Assembly (NCBI GenBank): GCA_964016885.1
Contig: OZ024762.1
Span: 25,606,001-25,670,000 of the forward strand
DNA length: 64,000 nt
Direction: 5' to 3'
From: Eledone cirrhosa
Taxonomy: Eukaryota
The notes under the pieces are model-generated. The model searched no databases and was not told the DNA's origin. It saw only the letters and a program-made list of their open reading frames with translations. The position numbers and the translations under genes are program-made. Positions 11,770-51,640 of the stretch are shown piece by piece (the first letter of the stretch is position 1; every line of letters starts with the position of its first letter).

Positions 11770-11965
11770 AACGAAGGAAATGTGGTAAGGAACCAGGTGG
11801 ACCATAACGCACCAAAGTACTCAATACTTAGGGTAGTAGAGTGGGTAATAGGAACGAGTAGGACCCCGACGGCTGAGCTCAAGCCGTTTCGACGGCTAAT
11901 TCTGGACTCAGAATTAGCCGTCGAAACGGCTCGAGCTCAGCCGTCGGGGTCCTACTCGTTCCTAT
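11770..11965 (-). mobile_element. Fold-back mini-element family B (PLE-type 3' end with half-hammerhead)
   Basis: Palindrome 11848-11965 containing GAAA-CGGCT..AGCCG-TC-GGGGTCC; related copies at 43067, 44750 and 19120. Confidence 0.75.
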
Positions 11966-11994
11966 ATATATATATATATATATATATATACATG

Positions 11995-12505
11995 AATTTA
12001 TGTATACCATATTTGGTAATATACTGTATGTTTAATTAAAAACATTTTGAAGACCTTGCGCTATTATTTTAAAGTAGTGACTATGTCACTTACTTCTTTT
12101 TTGCAGCAAAGGGAGGGAGAGAAGCTGACAGATTCTGTTTCACACTCTTGGTGTTCCTCAGAGCAACGACCTGTGCCAAAAATTATAGAGGCTGGATTCT
12201 TATAGAATTCCAGTAATAATCAGGAACTGATTATACATAGCGATTGCCGGTCCAGCAAAAATTAAAAATTAGGATTGGTACTCTGAAATATCATCCAGCC
12301 TCTATAATTTTCGGCAGAGGTCGGCGAGTACTTTGCTCTGAGGAACACCAAGAGTGTGAAACAGATCTGTCAGCTTATCTCCCTTCCTTTGCTGAAACAA
12401 AGAAGTAAGTGACATAGTCACTACTTTAAAATAATAGCGCAAGGTCTTCAAAATGATTTTAATTAAACATACAGTATATTATCAAATATACTATACATAC
12501 ATTCA
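11995..12505. mobile_element. Inverted-repeat element with an HHR in each arm
   Basis: Arms ~11995-12197 and ~12293-12505; GCT-CTGAGGA-ACAC/GTGT-GAAA-CAGATCTG-TC-AGC at 12335-12374 (+) and its mirror at ~12123-12164 (-). Confidence 0.75.
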
Positions 12506-12707
12506 TATATATGTGTGTGTGTGTGTGTGTAAGTGTGTGTGAGTGTGTAAATGTTTATATATATATTTATTTATATATATATATATTTATATATATGTAT
12601 ACATATATATACATATATGTATATATATGTATACATATATATAAAATTATACATATATATATATATATATATATATATATATATATATATATATATATAT
12701 ATATACA

Positions 12708-46779: not shown

Positions 46780-49700
46780 ATGAGCCTGTATATTTTAGGT
46801 AAATGATAACGAAAATAAAAATAAAAATAAGATAATAGATTTAGGCATGCTAAAGTTAAATATATACGTATATATAAAAGGGTGTAAGTGCATTGATTAT
46901 TCATAGTTCAAAATAAATGATAATCAATAAATTTAACTAAAAATTATGCATAGAATGATATATGGAGGTTTATATGGATATAAATTAGTTATTATTGATA
47001 TAAATTATGTATTATTGATACAGTATACTTTAGGTAAATGATAACAGTTATAATTTTATATAATAAGGTTCGAAACGTGTTATAGTTAAGTATATATATA
47101 TATATATATATATATATATATATATATATATATAAGGAAAGCAAGGAAAGTTTACACTGTTGAATATTTTCCTAAATATAAAATTTACCGAAGAATCATT
47201 TGTCAAGTTATGGTATGTAAATCTTATGAAGTACTTATTGTTAGAAATATTTAATTAACGGTTATGTATATAGATATTTATTAATGAGCCAGTATATTTT
47301 AGGTAAATGATAACGAAAAAAATATAATAGATTGAGGCATGGAAAGTTAAATATATACCTATATATAACGGGGTGTAAATGCATTAATTATTCATAGTTC
47401 GAAATAAATAATAATCAAAAACACATGAAAAATTCACAGTTAGAAATAAGTTCTATAAAAATGTATGGGTTGGATATAAAACTAAAATTTAAACCTTAGA
47501 TAGGAAGATAAAGGTAGAGAAATAAAGAAATAATGGTATGGATCAAAGTTAATATTAAGTTATGTATATCAATGTTCCGGCATGTTATTGAACAAGTGTC
47601 TTTCATTCGAGCGTTATTTCTTCTATAGATAGATTATAAGATAATGCAATATTAAAGGCCATTAATGTTTTTCCCTGTTGATTATATGTCTGACAACCAA
47701 GTTTTTAATGGTTAAGTGTTTTTCTCTCTTTTTTTCTCGTTTTGTGAGAGGCTAAGTATGTGGACGTAGCTTTGTGGAGGCAACTAGAGAATAATTCACT
47801 TTTTTGTTAATTAGGGTCTCATAGTTATTAAATAATCAACAGGGTCCCCATTGTACAGAGCTCGCACTTATTTGATATACTGGAGTTGCGGTAAACTCCA
47901 CAGTTCCGAAGTTTAGTCCAAAGAATGGAGTATTTTAAATTCCTCTCTTTTAATGACCATATGAGCTGTGATAAAGACGTGGATGATTTCCTCTTGGTGT
48001 TTGAGAAGAAGCATTTATGGTTCGCAAATCTGGCTTTAAATGTATAAGTCTTCGATCCTATATAGTTGTATGTGTTGTGGTCAGTTTTTACGGTGCCTTT
48101 ATAAACCAAGTTACTATCTAGACAATTATTTTGCAAAGGGCAATCAGATTTATTTCTACAATTACATTTTGGTTTAGTATCATTTATGTTAACTCTATTA
48201 TTAAGATCATTATGCTGGTTTTGTTTTAGGATTTTAGTGTTTAATTTGGCAATGTTTTGGGCCATGTTCATCGTTGTCGAATATGAGAATTTAATTGTAT
48301 GGTATTTATGTTATTTATGTTGAGTAGGGAAAGAGGTGTCCAAAGCGTTAAAGAATAATTTTTCAATTGGTGTTTTGACTGCGACCGAAGCGGGGGGCGA
48401 ACCATATAACTGATTTAGTTCTAGTTCTTATCCTAGATTTATTTGGCGTATGGGTGTTTGAATTATAATTATTAGAGTTTTTCTTATATATGTTATTATT
48501 TTTATTACGATTAATACTTGGATTATTATTATCTACATATTCTATATTATTCATATATCCTGCTCTTTTTAACGCGTTGTTGTAGTATTCAGAGATTTCG
48601 TCGAATATAGCTTTATTGGCTGATATTTTAATAATTCGTTTTTGCACACTATTTACTATAGCTTTTTTACAGATTTCGGGTGATTGGAATGGTTACTAAC
48701 ATAATTTAAGTTTTCATTAGGCTTATGAAAAAGGTAATAGAAGCCAGTGTTTAAGTTAAAAGTAACGTCTAGGAAATTAACTATTTTGGTACCATTTTCT
48801 ACTTCTAACTTAAGGTCGTACTTTTTAAAGAATTCTATTATACTTTTCTTTACTCTATTTAGTTCTATATTGTTGTGTTTGACCACGGTAAATAAAATGT
48901 CGTCCCTATACAAACCACCGGTAATTTCCGGCAGTTTTCTATTTATCATATTTAATATGAAAATTCCCAGAAGATCTGTGATTTGCGCGGAATTGGATGC
49001 CCCCATAGTGATATCAAAATTTCTATCTCTATCTGAGCGGGTCCAATATTCGTTGTTGAAGTTAATAAGAGTTCTTCTGGCTGTTAGTATTATGTCTATT
49101 TCATCCGTGGTTATATCAGTATGCTTATAAGCATATGAAAGAGCCTTATTTAGAAGGCTAGGTGTTATGGAAGAATAGTATCTAGTAATGTCCATCTGGA
49201 TGAATTTATGGTTTTTCTAATCTTCTATATTCTTGTACCATTCTATGACTTCGTTTGGATCTTTCAATAAGCTCAAATTAGATCTCAATTTAAGGGTGGG
49301 TAATAATCTATCTATAATGTTTTTACTGATTACTCCAATATCCGATTTCGATGGAGCAATCAGTCTAACTAACATATTTTCCTCAGCTAAATCCTTTAAA
49401 ATTTATCATCATAAAATTCTGAAGTTTAGAAATGTTAAAACACCTATTGAATTTACAAAACTAATAAATAACCTGCAATTTAAAAAAAAAAAACCTAAAT
49501 TCTTGACTCTTCACCCTAAAATAGCATAAATTAAATATTTTCAAACTTAACCGTTTAACTTTCGGAAAATCTCCTACATATATTCCCTCTCTCTATCTAT
49601 ATATATATATTACATCAGCGGCTTTCATTAACCGCTTTCCCTGATAAATTGTAGTATCATACATTTTAAAATCTCTATAACTGTTAAATTAAGCAACGTT

Positions 49701-50035
49701 TTTCTTACTCACACATTCTCTATTGAATTTATTACGTTTTCACATTTTCTCATATTTAGGGTATAAATGTTAAACTTTCTCTTAGGTTAATCACTACCTT
49801 CATTAAATCTTAACCATTTAACATCTCAGGGTATGTCATATATCATTATATTTTGTCTGATGAGGACGTACTGTTGTACATCCGAAATATGTATAGTAAA
49901 ATGTAATTGATAAAAAGAACATCTATTTTATTAATATTTGTATTTAAATATTAATAACTCTGGAAAATTATTTTTCCATAGTGCTTCCAATCTACTGTAA
50001 AACTCATTGAATATTGTTTAACTCTTTAATATTTA
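46780..50035 (-). mobile_element. Hydra-clade-like PLE (same family as 139-2650) with an inverted 3'-end segment at 49388-50035
   Basis: ORFs 48656-49195 (YRDD), 48363-48647 and 47828-48271; 49388-49947 is homologous to ~2070-2648 on +. Confidence 0.85.
49845..49907 (+). ncRNA. Type I hammerhead
   Basis: ATTATATTTTGT-CTGATGA-GGACGTAC/GTACATCC-GAAA-TATGTATA-GTAAAATGTAAT. Confidence 0.75.
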
Positions 50036-50057
50036 TATATATATATAAATCTATATA

Positions 50058-51640
50058 GTGGTGGAACACTGGAAAGTAATATCCGTAGTGGTAGAGCACT
50101 CAGTCCAAGGGACGAGTTAGGTATAAGCGGTTACACAACAGTTAGTTCACCATACCGAAACAATTGTTTCACCTTCGAGGATCTTCAGCTCGGAATGGGC
50201 ATGGTTATAGGAACAGGAAGGACAACCGTACGAACGGGCATGCGCAGAAACGCGGTCACTTCACACAGGCAATACTAGACTGCGTGCGAGAAGTTCAAGG
50301 GAGATAACTGTGAAAGTCCGAAAAGTTTTTAGGTTGAAAATAAAATTACAAAGAATCAGTCCGGAGCCTTATAGTTATGCAGTAGGTGTTTGGCGACGTG
50401 TGGACAGCGTGTGAAAAATTCACCCCTCATGTTTAGGCAATCACTATTGCGTAATCTCTTTAGAATAGTTATTCGTTCGTCAATACAGAAGCCACACGTC
50501 AGATTTCCCCTTGTGTGTGGCTTGGACTTAGTGATGGCTTTCCATTGAATGGAGTAGTCTATACTTGAGTCCTTGACGGACCATACGTGGCTCGCGAGTT
50601 TCGTGGATGAACGTCTGTCAGGGTATCTGAAGGTAGACTGGTGGTTCGGGAAACATTCCTTGAATCGGCCCTCCGCCATGCCCACATAGGATTTGACCTC
50701 CTGTGGTTCGTTTGGTCGGTTGGAAGTGACCACAGCTTCATAGATTACAGCTGGTGTGTTGCATTGCTGTTGAAGGTGCAAGCTTCAGGCTTACGGCAAG
50801 CGCACCCTGGTGGGATGTTGCTCCTAGGGCTGCTGGTGATGTGGGTCTTTATGTTCTTAGCGCAGGAGTATTCTAGTTTAACTTTGTGTCTGTTAAAGAT
50901 GGAGCGGTATTTATGACCTATGGGGAAGTGTCTATCTAAGAGGGCTAGAAATTGTTTTCCTACATTGGTTTTAACGTTGAGTGAGAAGGGGGGAGAGAAC
51001 CAGATAGTTTGTCTATTGATGCGCTTACTTTTCTTAATAGTGTTGTTGCTAGTGGGAGAGTAAGTGATAGGTTGTGAGAAGCCGCTGTTAGCCAACGCCG
51101 TGTTATAGTAGGGTGCCGCCCTGTCAAAGATAGCCTTATTAGAGGAGAGGTTTGAGATTCTAGTACTGATATACTTAACGATGTTTCTAAAAACAGTGGG
51201 AGGGTGGCATGAGTCCTTGTGAATGTAATTATGTTTCTCGTTTAGCTTATGGAAGGGTCTGTGGCTGTGTGTGCGAAAGTCTAAATTAATGTCTAAGAAA
51301 TCTACGCTAGAGAGGTTGGTGGCTACTGTTATCCTAAGTCCTAACACCTTGAAAGTAGAAGCTAAGTCTTTTTTAAACCGGTCGAGGTCGTGACCACTTT
51401 TATGGCTCGATAAAGTCAGTCCATCGTCACGGTATATTCCCGTGTGGTAGTCCGGGAATCTAACACGTAATATGTCTAAGATAAAAAGGCCAACCAAGTC
51501 ACATACGTCAGCACTGTCAAACGATCCCATGGAGACGTTGAACAGGTCTGAAGATGTAGACATCTTTGAACAGGCTACGCCGTCGTTGAAGGGGAGGATT
51601 TTCCAGCAGTGAGCGATGATTTGCCTGTCTAAACCATCGA
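50058..51640 (-). mobile_element. 5'-truncated Hydra-clade-like PLE with short 3' region
   Basis: ORFs 50745-51563 (MGSFDSAD, GIYRDD, CACRKPEAC) and 50356-50781 (VIYEA..YVG..FK..NH, CGFC); HHR 50155-50193. Confidence 0.88.
50155..50193 (-). ncRNA. Minimal type I hammerhead
   Basis: CCGAG-CTGAAGA-TCCTCGAAGGT-GAAA-CAATTG-TT-TCGG. Confidence 0.75.

Follow-up and report, generated by a model that had tools for sequence, protein, structure and literature searches.

We propose that Penelope-like elements (PLEs) of the Hydra clade, a widespread group in animals, define their insertion ends through a small bulged stem, based on a 64,000-nt stretch of the Eledone cirrhosa genome (GenBank assembly GCA_964016885.1, contig OZ024762.1, positions 25,606,001 to 25,670,000 of the forward strand; hereafter the window) combined with copies elsewhere in this host genome and in other sources. 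The stem, CUC-Y...R-(U-N bulge)-GAG, is conserved with compensatory changes. It is carried twice in the leader, each copy mostly 7-9 nt 3' of one of two alternative ends, where it probably anchors the element's reverse transcriptase (RT)-endonuclease (EN) for priming at the upstream UA. The PLE 'tail' is the interval between the two stem-defined sites.

The terminal motif is one strand of a bulged stem

The initial annotation had listed a short motif, AYYGAGYRC-like, ahead of the (TA)n junction of several elements. All 13 main and 3 weaker instances lie at the coordinates and on the strands given, with spacings to the first TA tract of 37-56 nt for the main set (against the ~36-52 nt annotated) and 70-78 nt for the weaker one (annotated as ~75 nt). 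The positional enrichment that it proposed as a check is found in 1.064 Mb of host genome (the window plus 100 stretches of 10 kb, with 1465 non-repetitive (TA)n flanks in 803 clusters): the 9-mer occurs 36-52 nt before (TA)n in 8/803 flank clusters, compared to a mean of 0.56 and a maximum of 4 for 300 permuted motifs, and its reverse complement occurs in 0 clusters in the same interval. A looser 8-mer with coarse single-linkage clustering is not significantly enriched (22 clusters; mean 15, maximum 27). Across the whole genome, the motif with (TA)7 behind it has 42,853 matches in forward orientation and the reversed pattern has 3,024; these are matches, not copies, and a few families make up most of them. 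A DNA search of the host genome with window positions 11760-11900, in which common words are passed over, gave no match.

The motif is the 3' strand of the stem. In nearly every family, a CUC upstream of the GAG pairs with it, and a further helix is formed above a bulge on the 3' strand, usually 2 nt long with U first and with U, C, A or G as the second base. Because the inner insert ranges from 2 to ~108 nt, the stem was searched with scripted descriptors, not with a covariance model. Among 61 flank clusters with a sequence-only match 25-110 nt before (TA)n, 25 have the upstream CUC, compared to 18/704 matches elsewhere (p 4e-19) and a shuffled mean of 3.1 (maximum 10); most of the 18 background partner-bearing matches are themselves element copies. 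An opposite-strand control (15/61) was dropped as invalid for this comparison, since short insertions have TA on both sides.

With partners chosen without regard to pairing, positions +1, +2, +3 and -1 pair in 18/20, 18/20, 14/20 and 15/20 stems. All four counts exceed permutation; at +2, where the permuted mean is 8.0 stems, six pair types occur. The loci from other sources agree (84/102 vs 62 at +1, 47/66 vs 26 at +3), and the pair preceding the bulge covaries between C-G and U-A in both sets (18/20 in the host genome, 84/102 in the other sources). A U-first bulge was a selection criterion of the stem search; a control with non-U bulges is weaker at 30-79 nt, but not zero. Helix-internal G-U outnumbers A-C on the sense strand (18 vs 5, p 0.005), from which we infer a fold of the sense strand, most simply as RNA. 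The bases following GAG are conserved (A 76, C 82, T 81%) though unpaired.

Other identities for the motif were considered and rejected. A coding origin (the motif would read I-E-Y/C/F/H) is ruled out by its position upstream of the AUG in non-coding leaders. A selenocysteine insertion sequence would require the AUGA/GA quartet and apical AA, which are not in the stem consensus, and the 813-aa open reading frame (ORF) of one family is without UGA. The RNA polymerase III B box has the consensus GWTCRANNC with an upstream A box; here, the second bulge base varies and conservation follows pairing.

Tandem stems and paired insertion ends

In 50 leaders picked by protein pattern only, two tandem stems lie between the hammerhead motif and the AUG in most families with an intact leader, stem 2 being located ~20-110 nt before the AUG. 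The families have two sharp insertion ends, a short one preceding stem 1 and a long one preceding stem 2; the tail of the terminal copy holds stem 1, and stem 2 is seen only in read-through copies. A CUC follows the junction TA at 5-10 nt in 24/36 end sites, with a mode of 7-9 nt, compared to 77/697 other TAs (11% null; p 4e-15). For three window families with unseen read-through, stem 2 was predicted beforehand and was found in all three, with the CUC 7 nt after TA and then a Hydra ORF (8/10 loci for the family of the instance listed at 11817, 3/6 for 45584 and 1/5 for 18165).

Both sites are used in one integration event. Where two ends of one family face outward, 49/52 insertions combine one short and one long end (p 5e-12; 10 families), among them 28/29 inverted insertions of the largest family. 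Of all pairs counted, one extends over 7.9 kb and could represent two insertions, and the 45584 family gave no pairs, its short site not being located by the script. In the largest family, both fold-back arms cross the hammerhead cleavage site, and the template was therefore uncut or rejoined RNA, as for the Poseidon element PAc in vitro.

Further observations concern the same ends. In 27/44 cases, fold-back arms of the largest family start within 11 nt of one another, the place being the large hammerhead stem II loop, ~50-60 nt upstream from the short end (11771-11962, 43068-43252, 44752-44954 and 19 similar loci), possibly an RT stall or strand-switch site. At locus L403, an infrequent third end falls within stem 2, at the UA that comes next after CUCC. 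In read-through copies of the 20919/42916 family (L273, L277, L280, L295), stem 2 looks collapsed by deletion between short direct repeats, and the long end stays abundant. Other TA-flanking families (clusters 5, 18, 19, 20 and 56) have different short end motifs, TGACCCTCCC-like and CTCTTCCTGCT-like words, which may be end signals of other PLE clades.

Stems in other sources

The comparison covered 78 Hydra loci of 61 families from metagenome contigs, retrieved with an alignment of 52 homologues as query and taken as the best 80 of 370 relatives; a metagenome scan with a single protein as query gave no match. In the non-coding flanks, the stem is present in sense orientation in 33/61 families and in antisense in 2, compared to 0-6 for seven permuted cores and a shuffle mean of 2.6. 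Spacing from stem to stem is 59-74 nt in 17/22 cases, and terminal and read-through copies diverge -3 to +6 nt from the stem CUC in 18/21 loci (partners by eye). Three of six published Hydra consensi, from coral and sea cucumber, have clear stems as judged by eye, and the Hydra-1_Ajap consensus starts 2 nt before stem 1 and contains both stems.

The elements and their copies in the window

By their motifs, the elements are assigned to the Hydra clade. The RT/EN ORFs of the window contain SLKNIP, RWK, DKT and CxCx5C and are without CCHH, which are the marks of this clade. RWK/RWR is found near the N-terminus in the window and leader ORFs; the DKG to DKT change is present in elements A and B, with D139 and K140 invariant in homologue alignment A1; and the translations of A, B and D, as judged by eye, have the CxCx5C linker, with GIY-YIG at the C-terminus and no CCHH. 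The insertions lie in (TA)n. Hammerhead patterns match in the pseudo-long terminal repeat (pLTR) of several families, with none recognised for A or B, and a scan of the window at the Rfam gathering threshold gave 0 matches, as did Pfam for 10 ORFs of the window. In the host genome, a pattern for the Hydra N-terminus matches 2,196 times (control 2). Over the N-terminal 110 aa, the families are 26-70% identical (median 41%, 120 pairs) and are, on this evidence, diverged relatives, not independent lineages.

Several proposals of the initial annotation change accordingly in form. A conserved cis-element tied to end definition is supported, by stronger evidence than was then at hand, with RT/EN loading itself as a candidate role; yet the motif is only the 3' strand of the stem, is present twice, is spaced from the end 5' of the stem and not from the one lying 3', and owes its conservation to common descent in the Hydra clade, not to sharing by independent families. 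A fixed distance from the 3' end does not hold: the spacing between GAG and the downstream end is tightly defined in each family and varies over ~22-100 nt from one family to another. Nor are the families otherwise unrelated: of the 12 to which the 16 instances belong, 9 are connected with same-strand Hydra-clade ORFs, with no ORF link found for 20421, 61852 and 62390. Generality for TA-targeting PLEs was not confirmed, the sole non-Hydra TA-ending family examined, of Neptune/Nematis type, having neither such motif nor stem at its end. The orientation of the ORF-less fragments 18488 and 45584, assigned from the motif, proved correct: elsewhere in the genome, the 18488 family end sits downstream of a same-strand Hydra-type EN, and read-through of the 45584 family continues into an ORF on the same strand.

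The stem is intact in 10 of the 16 listed copies, and the other 6 are mutated copies of stem-keeping families. The features are as follows, with the position used in the initial annotation in brackets.

7471-7542, minus: long end of element A, where it joins (TA)n; in read-through copies it lies 7 nt 5' of the stem 2 CUC
7615-7642, minus: stem 1 of element A, terminal copy, within the tail (~7613)
8408-10632, minus: ORF of element A, Hydra-clade PLE by its motifs (SLKNIP, RWK, DKT, CxCx5C), RT with GIY-YIG at the C-terminus, with a frameshift near 10081-10147; the host genome has intact copies of 781 codons at other places
10632-10647, minus: leader stem 2 of element A (CUC ... UU-bulge GAG), ~30 nt before the AUG, weak when folded alone
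10728-10755, minus: stem 1 of element A, upstream pLTR/leader copy (10655-10800 matches 7542-7687 at 100%)
10800-11458, plus: inverted arm of element A to the short end at 11426, 7 nt 5' of the stem 1 CUC
11590-11656, plus: further stem 1, newly found, 96 nt before TA
11771-11962: highest-copy family, fold-back insertion with its long end at 11771 (minus) and its short end at 11962 (plus)
11820-11841, minus: stem 1, highest-copy family (11817)
18155-18171, plus: stem 1 (18165), with stem 2 and ORF in one read-through copy, L435
18488-18497, minus: stem 3' strand (18488), partner intact in other copies; the family follows a Hydra-type EN
18992-19015, plus: further stem, newly found, 37 nt before TA
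19215-19224, plus: stem 1 3' strand, diverged member of the highest-copy family (19215); CUC reads CUU
20421-20430, minus: stem 3' strand (20421), second upper pair broken here and intact in the family
20780-20969: fold-back insertion, short and long end (20919), CUC mutated; family without canonical stem 2
27176-30276: two 5'-truncated Hydra ORFs of family B in inverted arrangement; the intact ORF has 813 aa and the unit 6.3-6.6 kb
34053-34131, plus: stem 1, family B, 61-nt inner insert (34125)
42070-42088, plus: stem 1, G-C lower pair, UA bulge (42082)
42919-42935, minus: stem 1 of the 20919 family (42916)
43068-43252: highest-copy family, long and short end (43114), CUC mutated in this copy
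44752-44954: highest-copy family, short and long end (44899), CUC mutated in this copy
45587-45609, minus: stem 1, 6-bp upper helix (45584)
50099-50116, minus: stem 1, family D, 1-nt bulge variant (50096)
50155-50193, minus: upstream of the stem of family D, a type I hammerhead motif by pattern and by eye; 0 at Rfam gathering
50356-51677, minus: Hydra RT/EN fragments, family D
61855-61924, minus: bulged stem, long insert (61852), no ORF link found
62393-62415, minus: stem 1 (62390), no ORF link found; one read-through copy has a second stem beyond the end

The 3' region of family B (~3.8 kb; window 30276-34181; L191-L202), inside its 6.3-6.6 kb tandem unit, consists mostly of TA/CA/TG microsatellites, and some genomic microsatellite tracts are therefore spread by the element itself. 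The Neptune/Nematis-type PLE (6513-7366, minus; L204-L210) is a high-copy element with DKG, Cx4CxxC, CCHH and 758 aa; a separate 421-aa ORF precedes its RT ORF, and no hammerhead was recognised at its end. To our knowledge, a two-ORF organisation is unusual among PLEs. The window also holds a restriction-like endonuclease fragment (60842-61330, minus; RPDIV...IEI..P.D; no Pfam match), which we take to come from an R2/R4/NeSL-type non-LTR element, and a decayed element (52970-57601, plus) with a gag-knuckle ORF and APE and RT fragments, presumably L1/Tx1-like non-LTR. In Naiad/Chlamys consensi (File S5 of PMC8557442), a five-term search gave 17 matches, one of them stem-like; it is a perfect-looking bulged stem in the 3' untranslated region of Naiad_Mmer, ~540 nt from the consensus end, and may be due to chance.

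Proposed mechanism and alternatives

In the anchoring mechanism that we favour, each stem would bind the RT-EN protein of the element on the RNA, and the bound protein would bring the active site of the RT to the UA located 7-9 nt upstream. This UA would pair with the nicked (TA)n target end, which would prime reverse transcription, so that insertion ends would correspond to priming sites, by analogy with PAc. Two protomers on the two stems would then prime the two sides of one break, yielding one short and one long end. More speculatively, the stem may form a U-A-U triple or arginine sandwich as in the HIV transactivation response element (TAR) and 7SK, with the conserved RxR that precedes W(F/Y)NPP as its reader. 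Arg is present there in 45 and 48 of 52 Hydra proteins, and the RxR is absent from the Neptune-type ORF; as an RNA-contacting site it is only a lead. A further-reaching version is possible but in our view rather doubtful, namely twin priming by a dimeric RT-EN gripping two TAR-like stems via RxR, where one device would make the tail, the long and short ends and the inverted arms, and a portable ~100-nt tag would be sufficient to insert any upstream RNA.

The spacing, the two end types and the sense-strand fold would equally be accounted for if the stem caused the RNA to be cut, or the 3' end of the transcript to form, 7-9 nt upstream of the stem, through the element protein or a host factor, with the RT priming conventionally at the resulting 3' ends, and the available text of PMC11167929 indeed reports RNA-seq read ends at the PAc initiation sites. 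We consider this unlikely: alone, it does not yield the long and short pairing of the inverted insertions, which needs both sites in one event, and PAc, although of another clade, initiates internally on uncut RNA in vitro (PMC11167929). The covariation across inserts of up to ~108 nt bears on a different model, also improbable, in which a hairpin in sense single-stranded DNA, or a near-palindrome in duplex DNA, would guide the GIY-YIG endonuclease to cut or resolve an intermediate at two sites. Such covariation needs a single strand, and the G-U over A-C bias excludes antisense complementary DNA and a symmetric cruciform, though not sense single-stranded DNA. The DNA model draws on the tail being required for recognition of plasmid DNA by the Penelope EN (cited in PMC11167929), on the attribution of the tail to EN-mediated resolution by Craig et al. 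2021 (PMC8557442), as far as the available texts go, and on the conserved unpaired bases after GAG, GAGYRCTC being near-palindromic. Finally, the position of stem 2 close to the AUG, the TAR-like layout and the one family having an end without stem 2 would fit leader hairpins that regulate translation or transcription of the ORF, for instance by autoregulation, with the ends set only by UA microhomology. This we hold to be very improbable, as the leaders contain hundreds of TA dinucleotides and the ends nevertheless choose those 7-9 nt before a stem, a choice that holds for both stems and in other sources.

Several observations weigh against the stem as the general determinant of the ends. No covariation is seen at position -2, family D uses 1-nt bulges, and 4/20 stems have a U-C mismatch below the core. 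The unfiltered count of G-U vs A-C is 24 vs 20 and not significant. Minimum-energy folding alone gives the bulged helix in 4/8 window stems, and stem 2 of element A is essentially unfolded when folded alone; several stems are therefore weak on their own. A CUC at 5-10 nt is missing from 12/36 end sites, and 2 of the 24 CUCs found there have no proper partner. None of the read-through copies seen for the 20919/42916 family (first 100 of 310 matches) shows a canonical stem 2, and despite this the family's long end is sharp (12 junctions) and its long and short pairs are 4/4. The patterns used to predict stem 2 required the CUC, leaving only the partner strand, bulge, spacing and ORF free to fail, and the 18165 result comes from 1 locus. 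In the other sources, 28/61 families have no strict match (many flanks are short), and the remaining published Hydra consensi comprise 1 wobble, 1 degenerate and 1 negative case. All families being related, the counts do not represent independent events.

Comparison with known systems

In 3' stem-loops of long interspersed nuclear elements (LINEs), hepatitis B virus (HBV) epsilon and the telomerase template boundary element, a small RNA structure bound by the RT fixes the start or stop of copying. By analogy, the stem would act like these RT-positioning structures, but would make the origin of the PLE tail directly testable. It would differ in being located 3' of its own start site, in not being copied from that site and in being duplicated for two starts.

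The elements agree with the Hydra clade as described by Craig et al. 2021 (PMC8557442) in RWK/RWR, DKT, the CxCx5C linker, the absence of CCHH and the (TA)n target, as well as in partial tandems, inverted arms and a tail at one end. The latter had already been described (PMC3846280, PMC8557442). For the pLTR hammerhead of that clade, the agreement consists of pattern matches in several families. In contrast, the available text of PMC8557442 describes no leader stem, tandem pair or stem-to-end spacing; the tail here is typically ~60-70 nt (up to ~165 nt in the host genome) vs 30-40 nt there, and some units here are 3.5-6.6 kb, unlike in that clade description.

The closest functional precedent is PAc (Poseidon, Anolis; Frangieh et al. 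2024, PMC11167929), where the RT starts internally at two sites and the interval is the tail; according to the available text, its protein-binding RNA motif is unmapped. Shared, on the mechanism favoured here, are the two start sites, the tail as their interval, the AT-rich target, dispensable hammerhead cleavage and a predicted dimer. The PAc start sites, however, lie inside the ORF in an AC-rich stem loop, whereas the putative ones described here are UA sites of a non-coding leader with a conserved bulged stem behind each, and the 96-nt PAc RNA (Fig. S1, PMC11167929) is without CUC as judged by eye.

The stem resembles the arginine sandwich of HIV TAR and 7SK stem-loop 1 (PMC6189040, available text) in the order of a Watson-Crick purine, a bulged U, a pair and, after it, an A-U pair that can accommodate a triple with U (TAR A22, U23, A27-U38; 7SK A39, U40U41, A43-U66). 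The bulged pyrimidine after a Watson-Crick pair is present here, and an A-U pair at the triple position is indicated by sequence only. The loop closes on the other side, and no evolutionary link is implied. Non-LTR retrozymes (PMC7229834, bioRxiv 10.64898/2026.07.22.740005, PMC4209133) likewise are hammerhead-bearing, pLTR-derived repeats mobilised by PLEs; the available texts describe no such stem, and the short copies of the window are instead truncated fold-back insertions of ORF-bearing families. The available text of PMC13282606 makes no mention of a ribozyme or of Hydra. A literature search found no description of the stem or of the stem-to-end spacing, subscription papers and some supplements being outside its coverage.

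Significance

PLEs are the closest retrotransposon relatives of telomerase, and how their RT chooses its start, and why the tail is one-sided, is puzzling. A covarying RNA structure that extends across the clade, and whose spacing to both ends is measured, reduces this question to point and spacing mutants. The stem provides a rule for calling the ends and orientation of Hydra elements, and is a candidate for the smallest cis signal with which insertion at (TA)n could be programmed. Stem-defined ends likely also explain the optional 'tail' of Hydra-type PLEs.

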